A stretch of DNA of 13,162 nucleotides from a virus (taxonomy: Duplodnaviria; Heunggongvirae; Uroviricota; Caudoviricetes), in the IMG/VR virus record IMGVR_UViG_3300000292_000107, one strand, 5' to 3'. The position numbers were made by a program, and so were the translations under genes. Position 1 is the stretch's first letter; every line of letters begins with the position of its first letter. Below the pieces are notes generated by a model. It was not told where the DNA came from. It did no database searches and saw only the letters and a program-made list of their open reading frames with translations. Positions 1 through 13,162 of this stretch are shown piece by piece.

Positions 1-1
1 C

Positions 2-331
2 AGGGTTTATGACGATCAGCCGTTTGACCGGCAGATTGTTATTCCGGCGGTGGCATTCAGCGGCGCTAAACATGAGCGGGAGAATAACGATATTTATTCG
101 TCATGCCGCCTGATAGTACGGAAAAACGGTGCTGAAATTTATAACCGTACCGCGCTGGATAATACGCTGATTTACAGTGGTGTTATTGATATGCCAGCTG
201 GTCGCGGCCACATGACGCTGGAGTTTTCGGTGTCAGCATGGCTGGTGAATAACTGGTATCCCACAGCAAGTATCAGCGATTTGCTGGTTGTGGTGATGAA
301 GAAAGCCACCGCAGGCATCAGTATCAGCTGA
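2..331 (+). CDS. Host-specificity (J-like) tail-tip protein, C-terminal fragment; 5' end lies outside the window
   Basis: Frame is open from position 2 to the TGA at 329-331 (the track's M at 50 is internal). It sits immediately upstream of lom and stf, which is the lambda order J-lom-stf. Assignment rests on synteny and recalled similarity to the lambda J C-terminus. Confidence 0.6.
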
Positions 332-349
332 ATTTTATAACCCATATAC

Positions 350-376
350 GGGCGCCAGAAATGGCGCCTTTTTTAT
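350..376 (+). terminator. Rho-independent terminator downstream of the J-like gene
   Basis: Self-complementary GGCGCC arms at 351-356 and 363-368 with a 6-nt loop, followed by TTTTTT at 369-374. Confidence 0.65.
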
Positions 377-398
377 TGCAGAAAAGCGAGAGGTAATT

Positions 399-989
399 AT
401 GCGTAAAGTTTGTGCAGTCATTTTGTCCGCAGCCATCTGTCTGTCCGTATCCGGTGCGCCTGCATGGGCGTCTGAACATCAGTCCACACTGAGCGCGGGG
501 TATCTTCATGCCCGTACGAACGCTCCCGGCAGCGATAATCTGAACGGGATTAACGTGAAATACCGTTATGAGTTTACGGACGCGCTGGGGCTGATTACGT
601 CCTTCAGTTATGCCAATGCTGAGGATGAGCAAAAAACGCACTACAGCGATACCCGCTGGCATGAAGATTCCGTGCGTAACCGCTGGTTCAGCGTGATGGC
701 GGGGCCGTCTGTACGCGTGAATGAATGGTTCAGCGCGTATTCGATGGCGGGTGTGGCTTACAGCCGTGTGTCGACTTTCTCCGGGGATTATCTCCGCGTA
801 ACTGACAACAAGGGGAAAACGCACGATGTGNNNNNNNNNNGTCGCCACAGCAACACGTCTCTGGCGTGGGGGGCTGGCGTGCAGTTTAACCCGACCGAAT
901 CCGTGACCATTGACCTTGCTTATGAAGGTTCCGGTAGTGGCGACTGGCGAACGGATGCATTTATTGTTGGTATCGGATACCGTTTCTGA
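399..989 (+). CDS. lom: Lom/Ail/PagC-family outer-membrane beta-barrel protein (prophage lysogenic-conversion gene)
   Basis: 196-aa ORF with a signal-peptide-like N-terminus (MRKVCAVILSAAICLSVSGAPAWA), the family motif GINVKYRYE and the C-terminal YEGSGSGDWRTD...GIGYRF. SD GAGAGG lies upstream of the ATG. Ten Ns at 831-840 fall inside the ORF without breaking frame. Confidence 0.9.
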   Translation: MRKVCAVILSAAICLSVSGAPAWASEHQSTLSAGYLHARTNAPGSDNLNGINVKYRYEFTDALGLITSFSYANAEDEQKTHYSDTRWHEDSVRNRWFSVMAGPSVRVNEWFSAYSMAGVAYSRVSTFSGDYLRVTDNKGKTHDVXXXXRHSNTSLAWGAGVQFNPTESVTIDLAYEGSGSGDWRTDAFIVGIGYRF

Positions 990-1093
990 CAACAGACGCC
1001 GATTTATCTTCTGTAAATATTGTTATGATACGCAGGTTCATCCACTTTATGGGGTGAACTGCGTTTGAGGAAACGTAAAGTTACACTGTCCTG

Positions 1094-1128
1094 AAGCCCG
1101 TGGCGTCACTGCTGCGGGCTTTTTTTAT
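1094..1128 (+). terminator. Rho-independent terminator downstream of lom
   Basis: AAGCCCG (1094-1100) pairs with CGGGCTT (1115-1121) around a 14-nt loop, followed by a run of seven Ts then ATT. Confidence 0.6.
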
Positions 1129-1140
1129 TGGTGGAAAAGT

Positions 1141-3516
1141 ATGACAGTAAAAATTTCTGGCGTGCTTAAAGATGGCACAGGAAAACCAGTACAGAACTGC
1201 ACCATTGTGCTGAAGGCCAGACGAACCAGCAGCACGGTGGTGGTGAACACGGTGGCCTCTGAAAATCCGGATGAAGCCGGACGTTACAGCATGGATGTTG
1301 AGCATGGTCAGTACAGCGTCACCCTGCTGGTTGAAGGTTTTCCGCCTTCACATGCCGGGACCATTACCGTCTATGAAGGTTCCAGACCAGGTACGCTGAA
1401 TGATTTTCTCGGTGCCATGACGGAAGATGATGTCATGCCGGAGGCATTGCGTCGTTTTGAGGCAATGGTGGAAGAAGCGGCACGCAACGCCGAAGCCGCC
1501 TCTCAGAGCGCAGCGGCGGCAAAGAAATCCGAAACTGCAGCGGCATCATCGAAGAACGCAGCGAAAACCTCAGAAACGAATGCAGCTAATAGTGCACAGG
1601 CGGCAGCGACCTCAAAGACTGCATCGGCAAACTACGCGACAGCAGCCAAAAAATCAGAAACCAACGCGAAAAATAGCGAGACAGCCGCAAAGACGAGCGA
1701 AACCAACGCAAAGTCCAGCCAGACGGCAGCGAAGACCAGCGAAACGAATGCTAAAGCCAGTGAAACTGCAGCAAAAAACAGCCAGGTTTCAGCAGCCCAA
1801 AGCGAGAGTGCCGCTGCCGGTTCTGCGACTTCAGCTGCCGGATCAGCAACTGCTGCGGCTAACAGCCAGAAAGCTGCGAAGACGAGTGAAACTAACGCAA
1901 AGTCCAGCCAGACGGCAGCGAAGACCAGCGAAACGAATGCCAAAGCCAGCGAAACTGCGGCGAAAAACAGTCAGGATGCAGCAGCCCAAAGCGAGAGTGC
2001 CGCAGCTGGTTCTGCAAGTGCGGCGGCTTCTTCTGCCACTGCATCAGCCAACAGTCAAAAAGCTGCAAAAACCAGTGAAACCAACGCAAAGGCGAGCGAG
2101 ACTGCGGCGGCTAACTCGGCGAAAGCATCCGCTGCAAGCCAGACAGCAGCTAAAGCAAGTGAGGATGCAGCCAGAGAGTATGCAAGCCAGGCTGCGGAGC
2201 CGTATAAACAAGTATTGCAGCCGCTTCCTGATGTGTGGATACCATTTAACGATTCACTGGATATGATTACGGGGTTTTCGCCGTCATATAAAAAGATTGT
2301 TATTGGTGATGATGAAATAACGATGCCTGGCGATAAGGTTGTAAAGTTTAAACGCGCATCGAAAGCAACCTATATTAATAAATCTGGTGTGCTGACAGAG
2401 GCTGCCATTGACGAGCCACGATTTGAACGTGATGGCCTGCTTATTGAGGGGCAAAGAACAAACTACATGCTCAATTCGGAAAGCCCTGCCAGTTGGGGGC
2501 GATCGTCAAATATGGATGTGCCCGAAACAGGGACGGATAATTTTGGTTTTACCTATGGAAAGTTTGTCTGCAACGATTCTCTGATTGGGCAAACCTCAGC
2601 CATTAATATGGCATCAATTGCTGCAACAAAGTCAGTTGATGTCTCAGGCGATAATAAACACGTGACAACCTCATGTCGTTTTAAAACAGAACTGCAGGTA
2701 AGGTTGCGTATCCGGTTTGATAAATATGACGGTAGCGCAACAACTTTTCTTGGTGATGCGTATATTGATACACAAACGCTTGAAATTAATATGACAGGCG
2801 GTGCTGCCTCAAGGATTACAGCGAGAGTCAGAAAGGACGAAGCTACCGGATGGATTTTTGCAGAGGCAACAATTCAGGCAATTGATGGGGAGTTAAAAAT
2901 AGGTTCTCAGATACAGTATTCTCCTAAGCAGGGCGGGGCAACCGTATCTGGTGACTATATTTATCTGGCCACCCCACAAGTAGAAAATGGGCCTTGTGTA
3001 TCATCTTTTATTATATCAGGAACGACGGCGGCGACCCGCGCAAGCGATATAGTTACAGTTCCCATTAAGAATAATCTTTATAATCTTCCTTTTACGGTTC
3101 TTTGTGAGGTACATAAGAACTGGTATAAAACGCCAAATGCAGCGCCGCGTGTTTTTGATACCGGCGGTCATCAAACCGGAGCGGCTATTATTCTTGGGTT
3201 CGGATCTGCGGCAGATGGGCCAGACGGATTTCCTTATTGCGATATTGGAGGAGCTAACAGACGGGTAAACGAAAACGCATCGCTTGAAAAAATGGTTATG
3301 GGGATGCGTGTAAAATCAGATCAGTCTACGTGCTCAGTAAGTAACGGGCGCATATCCAGCGAAAAAAAGACTACGTGGTCCTATATTCAGAACTCTGCAA
3401 CCATCCGTATTGGAGGCCAGACTACAGCAGGGTCACGTCATTTATTTGGTCATATCAGGAATTTCAGAATATGGCACAAGGCATTGACTGATGCTCAGGT
3501 GGGGGAGTCAATCTAA
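1141..3516 (+). CDS. stf: Side tail fibre protein (Stf-like) with lambda-like N-terminal anchor, Ala/Ser/Thr/Lys-rich repeat shaft and a divergent C-terminal LamG/ConA-like domain
   Basis: 791-aa ORF. The first ~110 aa (MTVKISGVLKDGTGKPVQNCTI...GRYSMDVEHGQYSV...FPPSHAGTITVYE) resemble the lambda Stf N-terminus as I recall it. The middle is built of KTSETNAK-type repeats. The C-terminus ends LFGHIRNFRIWHKALTDAQV, which looks like a laminin-G/ConA-like jelly-roll terminus. Position after lom matches lambda. Confidence 0.85.
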   Translation: MTVKISGVLKDGTGKPVQNCTIVLKARRTSSTVVVNTVASENPDEAGRYSMDVEHGQYSVTLLVEGFPPSHAGTITVYEGSRPGTLNDFLGAMTEDDVMPEALRRFEAMVEEAARNAEAASQSAAAAKKSETAAASSKNAAKTSETNAANSAQAAATSKTASANYATAAKKSETNAKNSETAAKTSETNAKSSQTAAKTSETNAKASETAAKNSQVSAAQSESAAAGSATSAAGSATAAANSQKAAKTSETNAKSSQTAAKTSETNAKASETAAKNSQDAAAQSESAAAGSASAAASSATASANSQKAAKTSETNAKASETAAANSAKASAASQTAAKASEDAAREYASQAAEPYKQVLQPLPDVWIPFNDSLDMITGFSPSYKKIVIGDDEITMPGDKVVKFKRASKATYINKSGVLTEAAIDEPRFERDGLLIEGQRTNYMLNSESPASWGRSSNMDVPETGTDNFGFTYGKFVCNDSLIGQTSAINMASIAATKSVDVSGDNKHVTTSCRFKTELQVRLRIRFDKYDGSATTFLGDAYIDTQTLEINMTGGAASRITARVRKDEATGWIFAEATIQAIDGELKIGSQIQYSPKQGGATVSGDYIYLATPQVENGPCVSSFIISGTTAATRASDIVTVPIKNNLYNLPFTVLCEVHKNWYKTPNAAPRVFDTGGHQTGAAIILGFGSAADGPDGFPYCDIGGANRRVNENASLEKMVMGMRVKSDQSTCSVSNGRISSEKKTTWSYIQNSATIRIGGQTTAGSRHLFGHIRNFRIWHKALTDAQVGESI
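1640..2110 (+). repeat. Nested in-frame tandem repeats inside stf: two full 189-bp units plus partial flanking copies, built from 24-27-bp sub-repeats
   Basis: Unit 1 at about 1691-1879 and unit 2 at about 1880-2068 are near-identical (anchors AAGTCCAGCCAGACGGCAGCGAAGACCAGCGAAACGAATGC at 1711 and 1900; GCAGCCCAAAGCGAGAGTGCCGC at 1792 and 1981). The period of 189 nt is 63 codons. Confidence 0.85.
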
Positions 3517-3797
3517 TGAAAGATTTAACACTCAAATTTGCCGACAGGGCCGACTTTTCGGCCTTTATGGAGAGTGCTGGCTATTATGATGACGAGTCGA
3601 TGCAGGATGATATTCTTATTGACGTGATAGGTAACGTGTACAAAGAAACCGGAGAACTTACTGAAGATGGCGAGCCGGTATGTGTTAAGGAAGACGGATA
3701 TTTTGTAAACGTGCGCATCATTAATGATGTGAAAACACCGTCAATATTCGATGAATACGTGGTTGCTGTTGAGCATCAACTTCGTGGCTGGATGTGA
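3516..3797 (+). CDS. Hypothetical acidic 93-aa protein, translationally coupled to stf
   Basis: Its ATG overlaps the stf stop (TAATG at 3514-3518). The ORF stops 9 nt before the next gene. I recognise no domain. Confidence 0.55.
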   Translation: MKDLTLKFADRADFSAFMESAGYYDDESMQDDILIDVIGNVYKETGELTEDGEPVCVKEDGYFVNVRIINDVKTPSIFDEYVVAVEHQLRGWM

Positions 3798-3806
3798 GGA
3801 AGAATA

Positions 3807-4847
3807 ATGGCTACATCGACAGTAATTCCTGATGACATCAAAACGCTAAAATCCGATGTTAGCAAATTAAAAAACGATCAAGGAAGCTACGTAACAAAAT
3901 CATATGTAGACAGCAAAAATGAAACCGTTAATGACTGGTCTGCTGCATGGTATCAGCAGGTACTGCCAACTAGCGGAGCTATATTTGGGCGAAAACTTCG
4001 CTCAACTCACAGGACGGCAGGTGTTGAGGATGCGTATTGCGAACTATACCTCAAAAAATGGATAGACAGTCCAGGTAACGCAATGGCGCGCCTTAACCTG
4101 AACGATAACGGGACAAACATTTGCTGGGACTTTACCAACCTTTATGGCGGTACGATGATTTTTCCCGGTGACAGCGGATACCTCAAAATGGGTAACTGCC
4201 TTATGTCATACAGCAAGCGTGGAAGTAACGCGCTTATTAAATTTGATTACACCGACACATTACAGATCAAATATGCCAATCATGGGTCAACCATGACATT
4301 AAACACACAGGGAACCGCTTATGCTGGTGTTACTGCTCAATTGTGGGGCAACTCCAGCCGTCCTGTTGTTTATGAAGTCGGTGTTGATGGTGGCGCTTAT
4401 ATGTTCTATGCGCAGAAAAATACCGATAACACCTATATGTTAAGCGTTAATGGTGCATGTCATGCCACCGCATTTAACCAGCATTCCGACCGGGATCTGA
4501 AAGACAACATTCAGGTGATCGATAATGCAACCGACCGCATCCGTAAAATGAACGGCTATACATACACGCTTAAAGAAAACGGTATGCCCTATGCTGGTGT
4601 CATTGCACAGGAAGCTCTGGAAGCAATCCCAGAAGTTGTAGGTTCCGCAATGAAATATCAGGACGGTGCAAGCGGATCGGAAGGTGAAGAAGGTGAACGT
4701 TATTACACAGTAGATTATTCTGGTGTTACTGGCTTGCTTGTTCAGGTAGCCAGAGAGTCAGACGACAGAATAACAGCACTGGAAGAAGAAAACGCAGAAT
4801 TAAGACAAAGATTATCTGCAATTGAGGCGGCGCTTGCGTCTAAATAA
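3807..4847 (+). CDS. Tail fibre/tailspike-like protein with C-terminal peptidase-S74 intramolecular chaperone domain
   Basis: 346-aa ORF with SD GAGGAAG upstream. The C-terminal ~120 aa begin SDRDLKDNI (Ser at codon 227, nt 4485-4487, with Lys five residues later), then NGYTYTLKENGMPYAGVIAQEALEAIPEVV...YYTVDYSGVTGLL and a terminal coiled-coil (ITALEEENAELRQRLSAIEAAL). This matches the autoproteolytic chaperone domain of endosialidase and T5 pb1-type fibres. Confidence 0.75.
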   Translation: MATSTVIPDDIKTLKSDVSKLKNDQGSYVTKSYVDSKNETVNDWSAAWYQQVLPTSGAIFGRKLRSTHRTAGVEDAYCELYLKKWIDSPGNAMARLNLNDNGTNICWDFTNLYGGTMIFPGDSGYLKMGNCLMSYSKRGSNALIKFDYTDTLQIKYANHGSTMTLNTQGTAYAGVTAQLWGNSSRPVVYEVGVDGGAYMFYAQKNTDNTYMLSVNGACHATAFNQHSDRDLKDNIQVIDNATDRIRKMNGYTYTLKENGMPYAGVIAQEALEAIPEVVGSAMKYQDGASGSEGEEGERYYTVDYSGVTGLLVQVARESDDRITALEEENAELRQRLSAIEAALASK

Positions 4848-4853
4848 TATCAA

Positions 4854-4876
4854 GGGGCCGAGCGCCCCGTTTTATT
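4854..4876 (+). terminator. Candidate rho-independent terminator ending the fibre operon
   Basis: GGGGC (4854-4858) pairs with GCCCC (4864-4868) around a 5-nt loop, followed by TTTT at 4870-4873. Confidence 0.5.
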
Positions 4877-4889
4877 GGGTAGGATGAAA

Positions 4890-5177
4890 ATGGATATAAC
4901 ACCTTTCCTTCATGCGCTTTGTGCTGTGGCTGCGCAGCTACTGATTGGTCTTTTTACCGGGAACTGGGCTTACGGGGCGATAGCCGGTTGTACGTTCTTC
5001 ATTGCGCGTGAACACACCCAGGCAGAATATCGCTGGATTGAAATGTTTGGGCATGGCAAGAGGATTAACATGCCGTGGTGGGGCGGTTTTGATCCGCGCG
5101 TGTGGGATGTGGCAAGCCTGATGGATTTTGCTGTGCCGGTGGTGGCGTGTCTGCTGATCTGGATGTTGATCCGTTAA
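4890..5177 (+). CDS. Small hydrophobic membrane protein of unknown function (prophage moron)
   Basis: The track ORF starts at a TTG (4875). In-frame ATGs lie at 4884 and 4890; AGGA at 4881-4884 is well spaced for 4890. The protein has two or three predicted hydrophobic helices (FLHALCAVAAQLLIGLF, AIAGCTFFIA, FAVPVVACLLIWMLI). Confidence 0.55.
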   Translation: MDITPFLHALCAVAAQLLIGLFTGNWAYGAIAGCTFFIAREHTQAEYRWIEMFGHGKRINMPWWGGFDPRVWDVASLMDFAVPVVACLLIWMLIR

Positions 5178-5180
5178 ATA

Positions 5181-5227
5181 TAAAAAGTAAAAAGCCGCAG
5201 TAACTTGTCATGATAGGATACTGCGGC
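5181..5227 (-). terminator. Candidate terminator for the dinI-like gene
   Basis: 9-bp stem GCCGCAGTA (5194-5202) / TACTGCGGC (5219-5227) around a 16-nt loop; on the minus strand it is followed by a T-rich run (complement of 5181-5193). The large loop is atypical. Confidence 0.4.
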
Positions 5228-5294
5228 TGGCTGGTTAACTTTCGATAGTGCGAGTATTGAATGATTTCCAGCCGTTACTGATTTTACGTGCTAA

Positions 5295-5543
5295 TTAGTG
5301 AACAAACCACTCGTCAGCAGACTCCCAGGTATCTTTCAGAGTTTCCTGAACAAAAGTTTTAGCTGAATCTTTATCGGCGGTGCGCGTAACAGAAAGGCCA
5401 TCGTTGCTGGTGGCTTTTACGATCACCTCTACATCGTCATAACGTTTACTGATGCGTCGGGTTAATTCTTCCTTTAACGCATCCACAGCACCGTTTGGCA
5501 TTTTAGTCATTTTTTCTTTGGCTATGCAGATCTCAATACGCAT
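5295..5543 (-). CDS. dinI: DinI-family protein (SOS-inducible RecA modulator homologue, prophage-encoded)
   Basis: 82-aa [12 protein letters not shown]...[13 protein letters not shown]...LSV...[16 protein letters not shown] shares the conserved blocks of E. coli DinI as I recall it. SD GAGGGA lies 6 nt upstream and two LexA boxes immediately upstream of that. Confidence 0.85.
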
Positions 5544-5556
5544 AAAAGTCCCTCTA

Positions 5557-5576
5557 TACTGTGTTTGTATACAGTA
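5557..5576 (-). promoter_or_regulatory. LexA box 1 (SOS operator) proximal to the dinI-like start
   Basis: TACTGTGTTTGTATACAGTA fits the CTGT-N8-ACAG consensus with AT-rich spacer; it lies 14 nt upstream of the dinI ATG. Confidence 0.8.
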
Positions 5577-5584
5577 TTATTTTT

Positions 5585-5604
5585 AACTGTATGGATAAAC
5601 AGTG
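5585..5604 (-). promoter_or_regulatory. LexA box 2, directly abutting the integrase stop codon
   Basis: AACTGTATGGATAAACAGTG fits CTGT-N8-ACAG. It is 28 bp centre-to-centre from box 1 and ends 1 nt before the int stop (5605-5607). Confidence 0.7.
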
Positions 5605-6702
5605 TCAAGAGGTCTTATTTCTGCTCCTTTGGAGCTCTTCAAAACGATTATGTAAAGATTTCGGATACAGTTCGGTATATACCTGCCATAGCACGTTTAA
5701 TGAACGATGCCCTGTAACCTGAGCGACTTCCTCAATACTAAAACCAGCCTCAAATAAGCGACTTGCCCCTTCTCTACGCAAATCATGGTATCGCAGATCT
5801 TTAATACCTAATTTGCTTCTTACCCTCTGAAATCCTGCAGTAACAGAAGTGCTGTTATATGGAAAAATGAATTCCGATTTTTTGGGCTGTCGTTGGACGA
5901 TATCCCAGGCTTCCCCAAGCAAGGCTACTTTCATGTGGTTGCCTTCCTTTTTGCGTGGATCTTTCCTGTCTCTTACGAGTATAGATTTTTGTTCCTGGTC
6001 GAGATCTTCCCATCGTAACCGGCATACTTCTCCGATCCGCATACAGGACCACACAGAAAATTTGAGGATATCAACGAACGGAATTTTTGAGCATTTATGA
6101 GTAGATCGTTGTTGAAGGCCTTCAATGAGCATGTCCAGTTCATCAGATGCTGGTCTACGATTCCGACGGTTTGATTTACCAATCAAACCAAGTTTAAGTA
6201 GATATGGGCGAGCGCTTTTCGCCGGGTTTGATGTGTAATTAATTCCGTATACAGGTTTGGCCGCATCCAGAACACTGCCAAGATAACTAACATCGTGGCT
6301 GACTGTTGCTGGACCTGCACCAGCGTTGTTTCTTAGCCTGCAATGTTCAATTACGTCATTTTCTGTCAGTTCAGATAGTTTGATCGCGGAGATGTCACTA
6401 TCCATAAGCAGTTCCAGCACATATCTTTTAGTACGGCCTGCTTTACCTCCGGCATTTGGGTCATTTAAATATTTGTGTAGTAAGTCACGGACTGTAAGTC
6501 CGTCAACTGGATTTGATGATGGAATGCCATATAGATCTAATTCCATCACTTTCTGTGTTCCCCATGTTTTGGCATGAGCATGTTTAGGGAATGTTTTGCT
6601 TTCCCTGTAAGTGATAACACCTTTTTCTTTGATAATCACATTACAGCGATAGCGTGGTGTGCCATCGGATTTTAGTCGTTTCTCTATGTTATAGTACGCC
6701 AT
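5605..6702 (-). CDS. int: Tyrosine recombinase / phage integrase (dusA-associated integrase type)
   Basis: 365-aa ORF with tyrosine-recombinase catalytic signatures in the C-terminal half (R in CMRIGEVCRLRWEDL; YHDLRREGAS box; GHRSLNVLWQVY with the catalytic Tyr). SD GAGG upstream. It lies divergent to, and 88 bp from, the dusA start. Confidence 0.9.
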   Translation of the reverse strand: MAYYNIEKRLKSDGTPRYRCNVIIKEKGVITYRESKTFPKHAHAKTWGTQKVMELDLYGIPSSNPVDGLTVRDLLHKYLNDPNAGGKAGRTKRYVLELLMDSDISAIKLSELTENDVIEHCRLRNNAGAGPATVSHDVSYLGSVLDAAKPVYGINYTSNPAKSARPYLLKLGLIGKSNRRNRRPASDELDMLIEGLQQRSTHKCSKIPFVDILKFSVWSCMRIGEVCRLRWEDLDQEQKSILVRDRKDPRKKEGNHMKVALLGEAWDIVQRQPKKSEFIFPYNSTSVTAGFQRVRSKLGIKDLRYHDLRREGASRLFEAGFSIEEVAQVTGHRSLNVLWQVYTELYPKSLHNRFEELQRSRNKTS

Positions 6703-8370: not shown

Positions 8371-9423
8371 ATGGAATCAATAGGCTGGAACCCTGCGTCG
8401 CCCGGCTTTCCAGAATCTCATGCGCACGCCGCGCATCCTTCAGCGGATATTTCTGCTGCTCGGCGACATCGACCTTAATCACACCGCTGGCAATCAAAGA
8501 GAACAGTTCATTACTGGCCTCGGTTAATTCCTCCCGCGTGGTGATATAGCCTTGCAGGGAAGGGCGTGTCACATACAACGAGCCTTTCTGATTGAGAATG
8601 CCTAAGTTCACACCGGTAACCGCACCTGATGAGTTGCCAAAACTCACCATTAAGCCGCGGCGTTGCAGGCAATCCAGCGACCGTTCCCAGGTGTCTCTGC
8701 CCACTGAATCGTACACCACGCGCACTTTCTTACCACCGGTGATCTCTTTCAATCGCTCGACCAGATTCTCTTCACGATAGTTAATAACCTGCCACGCGCC
8801 CGCTTTTAGCGCACTCTGCGCTTTTTGCGNNNNNNNNNNNNNNNNNNNNNNNNNNNNNNNNNNNNNNNNNNNNNNNNNNNNNNNNNNNNNNNNNNNNNNN
8901 NNNNNNNNNNNNNGCCGATAAGTTTCGCGCCCAGGGCTTTTGCCCACTGGCAGGCAATCAAGCCAACGCCGCCAGCCGCTGCGTGGAACAGGAACTGTTC
9001 ATCGGGTTTAATTTCATAGGTTTTGCGCAGCAGATAATAAACCGTTAAGCCTTTCAGGAAGGATGCCGCAGCTTGCTCAAAAGAAATTGCCGCAGGCAGA
9101 ATCGCCGCTTTATCTGCATTAATGTTATGCACAGAGCTGTAAGCGCCTAATGCCGATTGTGCATAGACTACGCGATCGCCTGCCTTAATATGCTTTACAC
9201 CACTGCCGACTTTACTCACGATGCCTGCCGCTTCGGTACCTAATCCGCTGGGTAGCGATGGCGGCGGGTAAAGGCCGCTGCGGATATACGTGTCGATAAA
9301 ATTGATGCCGATGGCTTTATTTTCGACCTGGATTTCATTCTCCGCCGGATCGGCAGGAGTGAACTCTACGGCTTGAAGTACTTCCGGGCCACCGTGCTTG
9401 TGAAATTCAATTCGTATTGCCAT
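8369..9423 (-). CDS. qorA: NADPH:quinone oxidoreductase (zeta-crystallin family), interrupted by an 84-N run at 8830-8913
   Basis: The two minus-strand track ORFs (8806..9423 and 8369..8947) are the N- and C-terminal parts of one Qor-like protein (GAGGVG nucleotide-binding motif; C-terminus ...ESRATQGSSLLIP). SD AAGGAG lies upstream of the ATG at 9423. The parts are in different frames across the N run. Confidence 0.8.
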
Positions 9424-9528
9424 TTAAACTCCTTTACTGAGCGACATATCTGTTTTAAGCCTAACAGTAGTCGCCAGGCCGCGCGGGGATTTTTTCCGGG
9501 CTGCGGTCACAACCCGGAATATCTCTGA

Positions 9529-11577
9529 TCAGTATTGAAACGGCGTCGCCGCAATCCAGTTTTGCCACTGGCGCTCAAAGTTGGTTAGCGTTAATACGCC
9601 CCGTTCACGGCACGGGCGAGTCCAGGTTTGGTAATCATTAGCTTCCCGACAAACACAAATCATATATTGCCTGGCATCCTGATTTTCTGGCCGAAAACGC
9701 CAGGCCAGGAGTGGCCCACCTGGTGTTTGCGGTGCAATACCGGCTTCGCCATCATAGATAGCCCTGGCACCACGACTCCCACCACCGTTTTCGACATAAC
9801 ATTGTAAAGAACGCAGTACAGCCAGCGCCAGTTGCGCACTTTGTCGCCACTGGAAAGATTGTGCCAGGCTGTTTTCATCGCATTGAATACCTTCCCGGCG
9901 AATATCTTCACAAAGTGTTGCCAGGGTTTGCGCGGCAGTGTTGATCCCCTGTGTATGACACAAAATTGCGGCATGGTGGCTCATGGTATTTTGTATCGTT
10001 TCTCGCACGTCGTCACGTAGCAGCCCCTGATTCAGGTGCTGTTGCGCCTCATTAATCGTACTGAGAATTTGTTGCCTCTCGAGAGGCCGGTCCTGGCTTT
10101 TCTGATGAGCAATATGTAATGCACAGCGGCGGGCGAAAACTTGCCCGGCATTGAGCGCTGCTCCACCTGGGCGCGTGACACCATGTGTTCCGGCATTTTC
10201 TCCGGCAGCATAACAACCAGTTAGCGATGTACGTGCCCAAATATCAACTTCAATTCCGCCATTAAGATGTTGATTATTTAGCGTAAACTTGAGCGGTGAG
10301 GCTGTGAGATCATGACCGTGCATCTGATACAAACGAATAGCCAGAGGATTCATCTGTGTTAATCTCGCCAGCGGTTGTGCCAGCAGGGCGTGATTTTGTT
10401 GCAGATAGTCGATGACATCATCATCCAGCTCCCGCAGGTTAAATAGTGTTCCGTCCGCTGCGGGTTCTGGTTCCCGTAGAAAATCGAGAAAAACATCGCG
10501 CCCTTTTTGAGTCTCTTCATAAACTGCGACATCCAGCAAGCTGGAGCCATATTCCAGCATTCGTTCCGCGTGAAACGGCCACTGGTAACCTTTGCGAAAT
10601 ATCGCGGAGGCCAGCATACGAGTCGTGGGGTAATAAGTTGCCAGAAAATTATACTGACGCCCGGAGTGGTCCTGCGAATAGATGCGCGGTATCGCCTGCA
10701 TGTAAGTACCGGAAAGATTCCACGGAAACTGGTTGCGCGGTGTACCGATACCAAACTGACTTTCCGTAAGATTAACCAGAGTTATCCCTGCTTCCAGCGC
10801 CATGCCCAACGCACTAAAACAGTTCACCGGATAAACACTGTCACGATAAAGTTCACCAGGCCCGCCCGTGGCTAAAACCAGATGCTGACAGCGAATCACT
10901 ACCATTCTCCAGGGATTATCCCGACAGGCTTTATCGATGGCGATCACCCCCTCGACTCGTCGATTTTCTCCTTCACCACTGGTCAGGATACGAATCGCCG
11001 TTGTGTGATCGCAAAGAGGAATATTAAGGCGCATTGCCTCCTGGGCCAGCACCTTCACCATCAGGCGCGATGTTCGAGGACCGCAGCTAGTGGCACGGCC
11101 AAATTCATCGTGATCGGTTTGGTAACGCAACGTTGCGCCAAAGAGATCTTCAGGCAGATCCAGACCCAGATATTTCAGTACTTCACAGGTGTTCACCGAT
11201 CCGACCGCCTCAACATATGCGGTGTCATGATCCATCGCACCACCTGCCGCCAGGGTGTTACTTAATGTCAGAAAATGGTCACCATTTGCACGGGTATTCG
11301 CGGTGTGAAGCGTTTGTTTATCAGAACCAGAACAGGCGGAAGTTCCCCAGAAGGCTTTGCTGGAGGCGACCATTACATCGACATTTTGCCGTTTCAGCTC
11401 GACGGCAGCTCGCCATCCTGCCGCGCCACTGCCCAGAACCAGCGTGTTGCAGCGGTACTCAGGTAAAATGGTACCGTTAAGGTCGATACTACCGCTGACT
11501 TGAGCCAGCGGTGCGTAATGGGGCATTTTCACGTCAGTCAGGGAATCGATAATAGATTCAGAGACATTATGCGTCAT
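9529..11577 (-). CDS. FAD-dependent oxidoreductase, succinate dehydrogenase/fumarate reductase/L-aspartate oxidase flavoprotein-like (FAD_binding_2 type)
   Basis: Rossmann dinucleotide motif LVLGSGAAGWRAA near the N-terminus, and later LVLATGGPGELY and GENAGTHGVTRPGGAALN blocks typical of this flavoprotein family. The track's start at 11694 overlaps the upstream MFS gene by 128 nt; the ATG at 11577 (MTHNV...) overlaps its stop by only 11 nt, and 11526 is another candidate. Confidence 0.7.
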   Translation of the reverse strand: MTHNVSESIIDSLTDVKMPHYAPLAQVSGSIDLNGTILPEYRCNTLVLGSGAAGWRAAVELKRQNVDVMVASSKAFWGTSACSGSDKQTLHTANTRANGDHFLTLSNTLAAGGAMDHDTAYVEAVGSVNTCEVLKYLGLDLPEDLFGATLRYQTDHDEFGRATSCGPRTSRLMVKVLAQEAMRLNIPLCDHTTAIRILTSGEGENRRVEGVIAIDKACRDNPWRMVVIRCQHLVLATGGPGELYRDSVYPVNCFSALGMALEAGITLVNLTESQFGIGTPRNQFPWNLSGTYMQAIPRIYSQDHSGRQYNFLATYYPTTRMLASAIFRKGYQWPFHAERMLEYGSSLLDVAVYEETQKGRDVFLDFLREPEPAADGTLFNLRELDDDVIDYLQQNHALLAQPLARLTQMNPLAIRLYQMHGHDLTASPLKFTLNNQHLNGGIEVDIWARTSLTGCYAAGENAGTHGVTRPGGAALNAGQVFARRCALHIAHQKSQDRPLERQQILSTINEAQQHLNQGLLRDDVRETIQNTMSHHAAILCHTQGINTAAQTLATLCEDIRREGIQCDENSLAQSFQWRQSAQLALAVLRSLQCYVENGGGSRGARAIYDGEAGIAPQTPGGPLLAWRFRPENQDARQYMICVCREANDYQTWTRPCRERGVLTLTNFERQWQNWIAATPFQY

Positions 11578-12967
11578 GGGAGGTGCCCGTAGTCTGGTTA
11601 TGTTGGGAAACGCTGATCGTTTCAGCGTCGGCAAGATCATCAAGATCACGATCGCGTGTTTCTGGAGCAAAGAAAGTCGCAATAATCGTACCAACGGTCA
11701 GCAGACTAAGGTAAATAGCGATTGGCATCCAGGCAGCAATACCACTGGGATCGTTAGTGTGGATCACCCAGGAAATGATTGCAGAACCAACCAGTGGCGC
11801 GATCCCTCCGGCAATAACGGCAGAAACTTCCCTTGCCAGTGCGACGCCAATATAACGATGGCGAGCACCAAAGAGTTCAGGCAGAAAAGCACCTTGTGCA
11901 CCAAACATACCCCAGGCTCCAATCCCTAAGGCCAGAGAAAGAGAGACAATAGTGACAGGAACATTACCGTGGCTGAAAGACCACCACACCGGAAAGGTAA
12001 TCAACAACTGAAAAATCGCCAGACTACGATAGACAAGAACCCTGCCGAAGCGATCGGTCAGCCAACCGGCAATAGGCACCATAATTGCACCGACTACTAC
12101 CGCAGACATCAGGCATAGCGTACCAACTGATTTGTCCAGCCCAACCACACCAACGATATAACTGATCGCTAAAGCCTGATAAATCGACGAGCCGCCGTTT
12201 TCTGCCAGACGTAAGCCAATCCCGACGAAGACATTACGGCGTGATGTTTTCAGCAAATTTCGTAAGGGTGATTCTGTAACTTGTTGACAAGCTTCGAGTT
12301 TTGCGAATGATGGCGATTCTTTAAGATGCAGTCGAATATAAATAGCCACCGCGATAATCACCACGCTGGAGAGGAAGGGCAAGCGCCACCACCAGGTTTC
12401 GGCAAGATTTGTCACATTATGCAGCAGGATGAAGTAAACGGCAGATGCCATAAACGTACCAATCTGGATTCCGAGGAACGGCAGCGCGGCGTAATAACCC
12501 CGTTTGCCGTCAGGAGCATATTCGGTCATCAGTACGGCGGCTCCCGCCTGTTCAGCCCCAGCACCAAGCCCTTGCAGCAGGCGTAATGCAATAAGCATAA
12601 TTGGCGCCCAGATTCCCGCTGTTTCGTAAGTGGGTAATACCCCGATCAACGTGCTGGCGATTCCCATTAACAACACCGTTGCTAACAGGACGAACTTACG
12701 GCCCAAACGATCACCTAATGAGCCGAAGATAATTCCGCCTACAGGTCTGACGGCAAATCCGAGAAAGTAGGTGCCAAAACTGGCGATCAGCGCCATTCCC
12801 GGTTCCTGATTAGGAAAAAAGAGTGGACCAAAAATAATGGCGGATGCCAGGCTGTAAAGTGCGAAATCGTAGTATTCCAGTGCGCTGCCGAGAGAGCAGG
12901 TCCACGCCGCGCGACGCAGATCTGCCGATGAAACATTCGCTTTCTCTGCTGGTTGTGAAGGTTGCAT
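11567..12967 (-). CDS. MFS transporter, metabolite:H+ symporter (MHS) family
   Basis: 466-aa ORF with many hydrophobic segments and the MHS/sugar-porter signature GSLGDRLGRKFVLL after the second helix. SD AAGGAG lies 8 nt upstream of the ATG. Confidence 0.85.
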   Translation of the reverse strand: MQPSQPAEKANVSSADLRRAAWTCSLGSALEYYDFALYSLASAIIFGPLFFPNQEPGMALIASFGTYFLGFAVRPVGGIIFGSLGDRLGRKFVLLATVLLMGIASTLIGVLPTYETAGIWAPIMLIALRLLQGLGAGAEQAGAAVLMTEYAPDGKRGYYAALPFLGIQIGTFMASAVYFILLHNVTNLAETWWWRLPFLSSVVIIAVAIYIRLHLKESPSFAKLEACQQVTESPLRNLLKTSRRNVFVGIGLRLAENGGSSIYQALAISYIVGVVGLDKSVGTLCLMSAVVVGAIMVPIAGWLTDRFGRVLVYRSLAIFQLLITFPVWWSFSHGNVPVTIVSLSLALGIGAWGMFGAQGAFLPELFGARHRYIGVALAREVSAVIAGGIAPLVGSAIISWVIHTNDPSGIAAWMPIAIYLSLLTVGTIIATFFAPETRDRDLDDLADAETISVSQHNQTTGTSHDA

Positions 12968-13057
12968 GATGTGTCTCCTTTCAGACGGATAAAAGAAATC
13001 CGCCTAAAATCAATGGGATTCTTGCGTTATTATTAAAATCCAAAATGAAATGCTAAG

Positions 13058-13162
13058 TTATCGAGCACTAAAGTGCGGTTGACGCTTCTCAGTAAATGCC
13101 TGACTGCCTTCATGAGCATCTTCAGTCGTGGCGGAAAAAGCGCCAGCCAGTGCTTCAAGCGT
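13058..13162 (-). CDS. Enoyl-CoA hydratase/isomerase (crotonase) family protein, C-terminal 34 codons only; rest lies outside the window
   Basis: Minus-strand translation ...TLEALAGAFSATTEDAHEGSQAFTEKRQPHFSAR-stop; the EG-x-x-AF-x-EKR-x-P-x-F tail is characteristic of crotonase-fold proteins. Confidence 0.55.
   Translation of the reverse strand, partial: TLEALAGAFSATTEDAHEGSQAFTEKRQPHFSAR

Follow-up and report, generated by a model that had tools for sequence, protein, structure and literature searches.

A five-gene accessory island between qorA and dnaB of Escherichia coli, a candidate organic-acid module with a flavoprotein of the fumarate reductase fold

Introduction

What is the role of the genes that separate qorA from dnaB in some strains of Escherichia coli? 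The question is raised by a stretch of DNA of 13,162 nucleotides (the whole of which is hereafter called the window), held as IMG/VR virus record IMGVR_UViG_3300000292_000107 and assigned to the Caudoviricetes. In its last part (positions 9529–13162) a minus-strand cluster of a crotonase-like gene, a transporter of the metabolite:H+ symporter (MHS) family and a large flavin adenine dinucleotide (FAD)-dependent oxidoreductase had been predicted next to qor, and it was suggested that the cluster would take up and oxidise an organic acid or a substrate linked to coenzyme A (CoA). Here we report that these genes belong to a real, intact accessory operon that exists in two carrier alleles. Together with a divergent regulatory gene the operon forms a five-gene island, which we regard with moderate confidence as an inducible module acting on a hydroxylated (polyhydroxy) carboxylic acid via a CoA thioester and a flavoprotein of the FrdA fold.

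The island and its site

Over these genes, E. coli PA45B and many further genomes match the window at 100% identity, with the annotations FAD-dependent oxidoreductase, MFS transporter and enoyl-CoA hydratase. Open reading frames (ORFs) for all three were found on the minus strand as described. The flavoprotein gene (9529–11577, minus strand; WP_000149529), the last of the operon, was identified by ORF calling. Its ORF spans 9529–11694 and the annotated ATG at 11577 yields a polypeptide of 682 amino acids (aa), a start backed by homologs of 687–690 aa that align over 99–100% of the flavoprotein. It is preceded by the MFS transporter gene (11567–12967, minus strand), encoding 466 aa with the Pfam domains Sugar_tr and MFS_1. 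The crotonase-like gene was correctly recognised as an enoyl-CoA hydratase gene, but only its last 105 nt, 34 codons and the stop, lie in the window (13058–13162, minus strand; cut by the window end), where the translation TLEALAGAF...FSAR* is the C-terminus of the 259-aa enoyl-CoA hydratase WP_001059070.

In PA45B the unit between qorA and dnaB comprises not three but five genes, encoding the flavoprotein (682 aa), the MFS transporter (466 aa), the hydratase (259 aa) and, beyond the window end, a YdiF-type CoA-transferase (523 aa) and a LacI-family regulator (344 aa). The neighbourhood comparison that the original prediction had proposed for finding the full operon and its regulator thus recovered both, and also found the unit in Citrobacter murliniae. 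The regulator gene is divergent from an operon of CoA-transferase, hydratase, transporter and flavoprotein genes, from which it is separated by a spacer of 255 bp with 34% GC. From CoA-transferase to flavoprotein, the first two operon genes overlap by 8 nt, the next two are 90 nt apart and the last two overlap by 11 nt, and it is from this spacing only that we infer a single transcript and translational coupling. The gene order of the operon is kept in Citrobacter and in two metagenomic relatives.

The last of these overlaps (11567–11577, minus strand) had been noted before and holds at 11 nt when the sequence is read directly (...tcc cAT Gac gca TAA tgt...), with the transporter stop at 11567–11569 and the flavoprotein ATG at 11575–11577; direct reading found no clear Shine-Dalgarno sequence ahead of this ATG. 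The 90 nt that separate the hydratase stop from the transporter start (12968–13057, minus strand) are AT-rich, and the transporter ATG is preceded 7 nt upstream by AGGAGA.

As the original prediction stated, qorA and dnaB are adjacent in K-12 MG1655, with a spacer of 82 bp and no island. The suggestion that the cluster is strain-specific cargo was borne out, the island being absent from K-12 and carried by 827 of the 5426 complete E. coli genomes (about 15%). Island-bearing strains include ST131, APEC O18 and ATCC 25922, and CFT073 and UTI89 carry island genes according to the literature (PMC2831201). The left junction of the island lies in the 105-nt spacer between the flavoprotein stop and the start of the core flanking gene qorA (9424–9528, minus strand). 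Island strains diverge from K-12 immediately upstream of the qorA ATG, ribosome-binding site included, and on the dnaB side only ~35 bp before dnaB are still recognisably homologous. Almost the entire K-12 qorA–dnaB spacer (positions 6233–6314 of the K-12 locus, L087) is replaced by the island, including the qorA ribosome-binding site and any K-12 promoter. Because no terminator-like site scored between the flavoprotein gene and qorA (9424–9528), qorA may be transcribed by read-through from the island operon in island strains; a hairpin at 9496–9517 is followed on the transcript strand by A's, not T's.

No integrase or insertion sequence gene was found in the island and no direct or inverted repeat of at least 8 bp at its junctions, and its GC content (0.512, against 0.52 in the flanks) is not anomalous. 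C. murliniae carries the same five genes, with 77–92% protein identity, at the same qorA–dnaB site, and Escherichia marmotae proteins share 90% clusters with the island proteins of E. coli. Because mobility genes, repeats and a GC anomaly are lacking and the site is shared with C. murliniae, the island is best read from sequence comparison as an old accessory segment, swapped or lost via homologous recombination, rather than as a recent mobile insertion.

The flavoprotein

A single Pfam domain, FAD_binding_2 (70.7 bits), was recognised in the flavoprotein. An AlphaFold (AF2) model, with a mean predicted local distance difference test score (pLDDT) of 79, matched the FrdA/SdhA structures 5vpn_A, 1kf6_A and 6vax_A in Foldseek searches (E 1e-26 to 1e-27, template modelling (TM) score 0.64–0.77, 16–18% identity), and NadB and AprA matched less well. 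The four-domain FrdA/SdhA fold is present, and the N-terminal GSGAAG FAD motif (residues 49–54) is invariant in the family. Additional insertions occur at about residues 296–345, and the C-terminal part is beta-rich. No signal peptide was found, in keeping with a cytoplasmic protein.

Whether the residues needed for catalysis in fumarate reductase or aspartate oxidase are conserved had been named as a check of the earlier annotation, and the outcome was mixed. The active site was mapped by hhalign profile alignments to FrdA and NadB together with a family alignment of 30 sequences. FrdA His355 and Arg390 are kept as the invariant H437 and R469, but FrdA His232 (NadB His244) is replaced by the invariant G276 and NadB Glu121 by Q153. 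FrdA Arg287 aligns to S346 in a poorly aligned stretch, with an invariant arginine, R339, seven residues upstream. Only half of the FrdA dicarboxylate site (His232, Arg287, His355 and Arg390) is therefore kept. The histidine that carries covalent 8-alpha-histidyl FAD is absent at the aligned position, where the motif reads GTSACSGSD. The family has invariant motifs of its own, TDHDExGRATSCGPRTSR (the first, modelled with low confidence), FPWNLSGTYxQ, KGYQWPFHA and GGGSRGAR, and G276 lies within FPWNLSGTYxQ and KGYQWPFHA. No gene for an iron-sulfur subunit (frdB/sdhB-like) or a membrane anchor was found beside the flavoprotein gene, its neighbours being the transporter gene and qorA.

The scores of the flavoprotein against NCBIfam models were 116.9 bits for TfrA (cut-off 718), 89.9 for the NadB model TIGR00551 (452.75), 87.6 for the SdhA/FrdA model TIGR01812 (567.3) and 30 for the flavocytochrome c model TIGR01813, which places it nearer the NadB/TfrA/SdhA branch than the flavocytochrome c branch. 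On sequence criteria it is a member of a separate, unnamed, conserved subfamily of ~690 aa within the FrdA/SdhA/NadB superfamily. The description of the oxidoreductase as long for its family holds against FrdA (602 aa) and NadB (540 aa), but 682 aa is normal for its own subfamily. This subfamily is large: a word-indexed search gave more than 7700 matches at E ≤ 1e-10, and in a 50%-identity library 376 representatives reached E ≤ 1e-30.

CoA-transferase, hydratase and regulator

The CoA-transferase, annotated as acyl CoA:acetate/3-ketoacid CoA transferase, is a fused class I enzyme of the YdiF/Pct type. It matches YdiF (2ahu) over its full length (residues 5–516, E 1e-99); the catalytic glutamate of YdiF (E333) aligns with the glutamate in LLEQGAIGG, and the GxGGF motif is present as GCGGF. 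Its score against the FadX equivalog model was 332 bits (cut-off 750). It is a different paralog from YdiF itself, the gene of which, in K-12, lies in the ydiFO-ydiQRST-fadK region beside ydiB/aroD.

The hydratase scored 182.7 bits against ECH_1 (cut-off 27) and retains both catalytic glutamates, E115 (GGGLE115) and E135 (ALPE135TG), as read in the sequence; their assignment to Glu144 and Glu164 of rat enoyl-CoA hydratase follows the known motif, not an alignment. Its best match in the Protein Data Bank (PDB) is a 3-hydroxypropionyl-CoA dehydratase (5zai, 4.7e-55), and short-chain crotonase is also close. The regulator contains the Pfam domains LacI (65.2 bits) and Peripla_BP_3 (113 bits), and the divergent spacer holds a CG-centred candidate LacI operator, TTGGAACGATCTAA, which is a perfect palindrome, TTGGAACGTTCCAA, in a relative.

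Two carrier alleles

Of the island-bearing genomes, 279 matched the query end to end (the MFS form) and the remainder, about 548, at 59% coverage. All 19 of the partial-coverage matches sampled were annotated with an 'Nramp family divalent metal transporter' in the place of the MFS gene, as in E. coli ST131 strain 4993 (locus L090, 7153–8382, equivalent in position to 11567–12967 of the window); the Nramp-like form thus makes up about two thirds of the island-bearing genomes. Alignment of the two forms delimited a replaceable cassette of ~1.5 kb (about 11530–13069, minus strand) that covers the last 3 hydratase codons, the 90-nt spacer, the transporter gene and the first ~16 flavoprotein codons: identity ends after ...CAACCGCACTTT and returns at AAAATGCCCCATTACGC, with ~98% identity outside the cassette. 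As a result, the first 16 flavoprotein residues differ between the two forms, and the 11-nt overlap exists in the MFS form only, the Nramp form having a 10-nt gap there. The swap amounts to a natural experiment in which two unrelated carriers serve the same pathway.

Sources name the window transporter 'MHS family MFS transporter'. Its best subfamily model was the MHS model TIGR00883 (350.7 bits, below the cut-off of 443.45) and its best named model the ShiA equivalog (267.8 bits, below the cut-off of 538), and it is probably closest to the MHS group. Homologs with 63–64% identity were found in Pseudomonas and Azotobacter as the third gene of operons in which a LysR gene accompanies genes for a short-chain dehydrogenase/reductase (SDR), a shikimate-dehydrogenase-family paralog and the MHS carrier (Pseudomonas loci L095/L096, 6344–9443; Azotobacter vinelandii locus L097, 6558–9419). 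The shikimate-dehydrogenase-family protein of these operons retains the motifs NVSMPYK and NTD; Azotobacter has a truncated SDR gene.

The Nramp-like protein lacks the metal motifs DPGN (transmembrane helix (TM) 1) and the MPHN type ((A/M)xxMPHN, TM6), and reads ...GYSIGTGSITT... and ...TTVAPAMF... at these positions, which were placed by eye from general knowledge of MntH/DraNramp; it scored 81 bits on the MntH model, against a cut-off of 430. Some of its homologs (51–64% identity) adjoin uxuA, a mannitol-dehydrogenase-family gene (as uxuB is), uxaC and a GntR regulator gene, others adjoin genes for UxuA, a ManD-like enolase and an AGE-family epimerase, and further ones belong to polysaccharide-utilisation loci that also encode SusCD, sulfatases and Gfo dehydrogenases. 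This suggests that a clade of the Nramp fold without the metal site carries sugars or sugar acids, not metals. The relatives of both carriers point to polyhydroxy carboxylic acids, carbocyclic in the case of the MFS protein and of the hexuronate/hexonate type in that of the Nramp-like protein.

Genomic contexts of relatives

To describe the surroundings of the flavoprotein family, ORFs were called in 86 loci and clustered, and representatives were annotated; context counts refer to 77 loci. The families found near the flavoprotein were LacI (33 loci), SDR (27), AP_endonuc_2 (23), GMC (23), CoA-transferase (21), Gfo/Idh/MocA (18 + 18) and KdgK-like kinase (12). Members of the family thus mostly have genes for enzymes of sugar or cyclitol type beside them.

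Five types of context were distinguished. Context A is that of the island, with a LacI gene divergent from CoA-transferase, hydratase, carrier and flavoprotein genes, and occurs in E. coli, Citrobacter and two metagenomic enterobacteria, one of them with the Nramp-like carrier. Context B, found in Yokenella, Klebsiella sp., Phytobacter, Pseudescherichia and others, combines a TetR gene with genes for an SDR, a Gfo/Idh/MocA protein, an AP_endonuc_2 protein (sugar-isomerase fold), an anion-type MFS carrier and the flavoprotein. In context C (E. albertii, E. ruysiae, E. whittamii and many E. coli), TetR is accompanied by an SDR, AP_endonuc_2, hydratase, CoA-transferase, the flavoprotein and a TRAP or MFS transporter. 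Context D, from Rhodobacteraceae and Rhizobium, has a sugar ATP-binding cassette (ABC) importer, two GMC flavoproteins, a Dabb protein, LacI, an LgdA/IolG-like Gfo dehydrogenase, the flavoprotein and a KdgK-like kinase. Context E, from alphaproteobacteria, has LacI, a Gfo dehydrogenase, CoA-transferase, hydratase, a non-acylating aldehyde dehydrogenase and a CUT1 ABC importer, with the flavoprotein gene divergent. The aldehyde dehydrogenase of context E is of a generic non-acylating kind, scoring 473 bits as betaine aldehyde dehydrogenase (BADH)-like against 265 bits for the CoA-acylating malonate/methylmalonate-semialdehyde type.

The CoA-transferase and hydratase of the E. coli island are 64–69% and 45–49% identical, respectively, to the proteins of context E, and 37–39% to those of context C. 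Because of this higher identity, context A looks like context E minus two dehydrogenases plus an acid carrier, which suggests that E. coli may import an acid that the context E bacteria would make from a neutral polyol or sugar. The putative site residues of the flavoprotein are invariant across all contexts. As a CoA-transferase gene is nearby in only 21 of the 77 loci, this invariance argues for a common flavoprotein-bound moiety, which may be a free acid rather than a thioester.

Within E. coli, context C is represented by a paralogous island of nine genes between ytfB and rplI (strain STEC309, locus L100, 5141–14924; also locus L076), which is present in 3153 of the 5426 complete genomes (58%). 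It includes a TetR gene and genes for an SDR resembling 3-ketoacyl-acyl carrier protein reductase, a protein of the sugar-phosphate-isomerase fold (AP_endonuc_2), hydratase, CoA-transferase, flavoprotein and a TRAP transporter (QMP). It shares the CoA-transferase/hydratase/flavoprotein trio with the qorA–dnaB island, its flavoprotein being 52% identical to that of the window, and appears uncharacterised too. In contrast, it adds the SDR and the sugar-isomerase-fold protein, has TetR instead of LacI and TRAP instead of an MFS or Nramp-like carrier, and its CoA-transferase and hydratase are only 37–39% identical. This island probably corresponds to CFT073 c5298–c5303, and a synteny table of 2010 scores it as absent in K-12 (PMC2831201).

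Proposed function and alternatives

The domains of the island proteins fit uptake and CoA-linked processing of an organic acid, as had been suggested; in place of the suggested oxidation, the flavoprotein could equally catalyse a reduction. We propose that the LacI-type protein would repress the divergent promoters through the CG-centred palindrome TTGGAACGATCTAA, and that the inducing acid would be imported by the H+ symporter or, in the other allele, by the Nramp-like carrier. The YdiF/Pct-type class I CoA-transferase would then form the CoA thioester, and the two-glutamate crotonase would add or remove water at the alpha,beta position. The stand-alone FrdA-fold flavoprotein would perform a two-electron redox step at C–C/C=C (or C2–H) beside a carboxylate held by H437 and R469, with aromatic and polar residues taking the place of the second carboxylate site. 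The order of these steps and the electron partner are conjectural, and the direction may be that of a catabolic oxidation or of a carnitine-like electron sink. The substrate would most likely be an acid of the hydroaromatic (shikimate/quinate-like) or sugar-acid type; that it is specifically of the shikimate/quinate type is a tentative suggestion, to which we assign a low probability.

A cluster with a comparable set of families is lig1/lig2 of Pseudomonas putida, which has been reported to be induced by quinate, protocatechuate and 4-hydroxybenzoate, and comprises a shikimate-dehydrogenase homolog, two FAD oxidoreductases, a NIPSNAP protein, an MFS carrier, a 'dehydroshikimate dehydratase' of the sugar-isomerase fold and LigC (bioRxiv 10.1101/2025.08.13.670189). 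This is the mix of families seen in contexts B and D of the flavoprotein relatives. LigC we take to be a Gfo/Idh/MocA-family enzyme.

Several observations weigh against this proposal. None of the five island proteins reaches the cut-off of any curated NCBIfam equivalog, and promoter and terminator scans of the island gave no more than the shuffled expectation. The hydratase is most similar to short-chain enzymes, which would fit small C3–C5 acids better than bulky ring or sugar acids. CoA esters of shikimate and quinate offer no beta-hydroxyl for a classical crotonase dehydration; with these thioesters, a crotonase could at most hydrate the double bond of shikimoyl-CoA or catalyse a vinylogous elimination. 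Neither an electron-transfer partner nor downstream enzymes (thiolase, lyase) are encoded in the island. With no CoA-transferase nearby in 56 of the 77 flavoprotein loci, the substrate may be the free acid and the link to CoA indirect. The two transporter clues indicate different acids, either hydroaromatic or of the hexuronate/hexonate type. The 86 loci of the flavoprotein family yielded no gene of the shikimate dehydrogenase family, and it is therefore only the transporter that links the island to shikimate.

The similarity of the hydratase to short-chain enzymes raises the alternative that the island is a module for C3–C5 acids, such as 3-hydroxypropionate/acrylate/propionate, crotonate/3-hydroxybutyrate or methacrylate/3-hydroxyisobutyrate. 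Here the Pct-like CoA-transferase would esterify the acid, the hydratase would interconvert enoyl- and 3-hydroxyacyl-CoA, and the flavoprotein would act between the saturated and the enoic acid, like acrylate reductases. Consistent with this, the best solved relatives of the hydratase are 5zai and short-chain crotonase, and the CoA-transferase is of the YdiF/propionate-CoA-transferase type. The related alphaproteobacterial clusters also add an alcohol-type dehydrogenase and an aldehyde dehydrogenase, roles that exist in the Halomonas acrylate route (acuN/acuK/dddA/dddC). However, that aldehyde dehydrogenase scored as generic and non-acylating, and support for a 3-hydroxypropionate route from a malonate-semialdehyde-type enzyme was accordingly dismissed. 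The regulator is of the LacI type, the importers of the related clusters are of the CUT1 sugar type and accompanied by KdgK-like kinases and by dehydrogenases resembling IolG or LgdA, and the relatives of both transporters adjoin shikimate-dehydrogenase-like or hexuronate genes rather than genes for short acids. We consider a short-chain substrate unlikely.

A carnitine-like electron sink, compatible with either substrate class, was given a similarly small share of the probability. The acid would be activated with CoA and dehydrated, the enoyl group would be reduced by the flavoprotein, and the reduced acyl-CoA would pass its CoA to the next substrate molecule while the reduced acid is excreted. 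Such a closed CoA cycle would account for the small number of genes, among which there is none for a thiolase or lyase, and transporter, CoA-transferase, crotonase and flavoprotein match the roles of CaiT, CaiB, CaiD and CaiA. Flavin reductases of gut bacteria act as enoate reductases, with shikimate among their substrates (bioRxiv 10.1101/2022.12.26.521950). Against this, no electron donor system (such as FixABCX or electron-transfer flavoprotein) is encoded nearby, the flavoprotein has no signal peptide whereas most flavin reductases of respiration have one, and many members of its family occur in aerobic soil and marine alphaproteobacteria beside catabolic kinases and dehydrogenases.

It is very improbable that the island serves to utilise a '3-ketoacid' (of the acetoacetate type), as would follow from the name given to the CoA-transferase in databases and from the listing of CFT073 c5020–c5025 under '3-ketoacid metabolism' in the 2010 synteny survey (PMC2831201). 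The label is an annotation transfer only and the island has no thiolase. The enzyme is of the fused YdiF type, not AtoDA/ScoAB (subunit models 52.9 and 51.4 bits, cut-offs 128.5 and 243.6), and hydratase, FrdA-like flavoprotein and LacI regulator would be superfluous for acetoacetate.

An additional isozyme of fumarate reductase or L-aspartate oxidase, accompanied by hitch-hiking genes, is scarcely credible despite the strong FrdA/SdhA fold match and best NCBIfam matches to TfrA, NadB and SdhA/FrdA, being ruled out by scores far below the cut-offs (117 against 718, 90 against 453 and 88 against 567), the lost residues (His232/His244 to Gly, Glu121 to Gln, Arg287 to Ser, no histidine for covalent FAD) and the missing Fe-S and anchor genes, in a species that already has frdABCD, sdhCDAB and nadB. 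The acyl-CoA deoxyribonate pathway of Klebsiella was set aside for its different gene set (ligase, hydroxyacyl-CoA dehydrogenase, thiolase and glycerate kinase).

A more far-reaching version of our proposal, which we think quite unlikely, is that the qorA–dnaB island and the ytfB–rplI paralog form an unrecognised CoA-dependent route for hydroaromatic acids through import, thioesterification, crotonase dehydration/hydration and flavoprotein redox. Microbial conversion of shikimate and quinate to reduced cyclohexane-carboxylates has long been known from the older literature on rat metabolism. If the route were real, it would give this conversion a genetic basis and would serve Enterobacteriaceae of the gut and urinary tract as a sink for electrons or a source of carbon; as a corollary, the 'Nramp' clade without the metal site would be carriers of organic acids or sugars.

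Comparison with known systems

In layout, the island resembles the E. coli cai operon for the conversion of carnitine to gamma-butyrobetaine, likewise an optional metabolic module, which unites in one operon a carrier, a CoA-transferase, a (de)hydratase of the crotonase type and a flavoprotein whose target is the alpha,beta bond. In cai, CaiB is a class III CoA-transferase, CaiA has the acyl-CoA dehydrogenase fold and is fed by FixABCX, CaiT is a BCCT antiporter, and regulation is through CaiF, CRP and FNR. The island differs in having a class I YdiF-type CoA-transferase, an FrdA/NadB-fold flavoprotein without a partner and a LacI-type regulator, and no sequence homology between the two was found beyond the crotonase. 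What sets the proposed module apart is that it would be a CoA-dependent organic-acid system built on an uncharacterised FrdA-fold flavoprotein instead of an acyl-CoA dehydrogenase. With the YdiF/propionate CoA-transferase family, the likeness is full-length and includes the catalytic residues. With FrdA, SdhA and NadB, it extends to the multi-domain fold, the GSGAAG motif and His355/Arg390; the low identity (16–18%), the loss of His232, Arg287 (as aligned) and the covalent-FAD histidine, and the stand-alone nature of the island flavoprotein are the differences.

In Rhodopseudomonas palustris the ali/bad genes (AliA, AliB, BadK, BadH and BadI) activate cyclohexanecarboxylate with CoA, dehydrogenate it to the 1-ene with a flavin enzyme and hydrate the product with a crotonase. 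This serves as an analogy only, likened by chemistry and not by sequence: it is the chemistry expected for a shikimate-like substrate, and an SDR counterpart occurs in the ytfB–rplI paralog, but AliB is an acyl-CoA dehydrogenase, AliA is a ligase, and no equivalent of the ring-opening BadI was identified in the island.

Extracytoplasmic flavin reductases of gut bacteria have been shown to reduce the enoate of shikimate, and are grouped with urocanate and cinnamate reductases (bioRxiv 10.1101/2022.12.26.521950). The likeness to these enzymes (urocanate, cinnamate, itaconate and shikimate reductases) lies in an enoate next to a carboxylate, for which shikimate is a proven substrate class (bioRxiv 10.1101/2022.12.26.521950). 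They are secreted and respiratory, whereas the island flavoprotein has no signal peptide. They are understood to belong to the flavocytochrome-c-type branch.

In the literature, the island genes appear only in comparative lists, as uncharacterised genes. CFT073 c5020–c5025 were listed as 'SAC 16, 3-ketoacid metabolism', present in UTI89 and absent in F11 and 536 (PMC2831201), absences that may reflect the other allele. A region designated 'GR 32' of extraintestinal pathogenic E. coli (ExPEC) includes five unnamed ORFs between qorA and dnaB that are missing in adherent-invasive E. coli (AIEC) (PMC12928451). Searches by protein accession, CFT073 c5020–c5025, PDB 7VPF and SMc04130, with subscription journals outside their coverage, found no functional work, and a plasmid protein search (PLSDB) found no model-organism context. 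The neighbouring island between tyrB and aphA (c5030–c5041), which encodes KguSR-dependent alpha-ketoglutarate utilisation, has been characterised (PMC3694859). Because it adjoins this known fitness island, and as it marks major extraintestinal pathogenic lineages, the qorA–dnaB island is a candidate niche-nutrition trait. Since the flavoprotein family, which has no assigned reaction, is conserved (376 representatives) and 58% of E. coli carry the paralogous cluster, a single biochemical assignment would annotate thousands of genes.

Other features of the window and its surroundings

Downstream of dnaB–alr, PA45B carries pnuC and an AAA-family ATPase gene, neither of them found in K-12 at this place, between alr and tyrB (locus L001, 21935–23487). 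After tyrB, from position 24944 of the same locus, comes another 2-oxoglutarate dehydrogenase cluster, already published as the KguSR island. The stretch from qorA to aphA is a hotspot of accessory metabolic genes.

The core flanking gene qorA (8440–9423, minus strand) is partly masked in the window. Runs of N occur at 831–840 and 8830–8913, the latter splitting qorA into two apparent ORFs.

At the other end of the window, positions 1–6702 are the right end of a lambdoid prophage. It borders directly on the 5' end of dusA and has genes for a Lom/Ail-family outer-membrane protein (399–989), tail fibres (1141–3516 and 3807–4847), a DinI-like protein (5295–5543, minus strand) and a tyrosine integrase (5605–6702, minus strand). 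Only 16 genomes match at least 80% of this part. The dusA product has 345 aa in the window and 331 aa in PA45B, which lacks the prophage; these lengths agree with an insertion of the prophage into the dusA 5' end. Inside the first tail-fibre gene, a strongly A-rich tandem repeat (1657–2171; AT skew 0.59) with periods of 21/42/189 nt encodes units of the type AKTSETNAK(S/A)S(Q/E)TAA and looks like an ordinary repetitive tail-fibre region.

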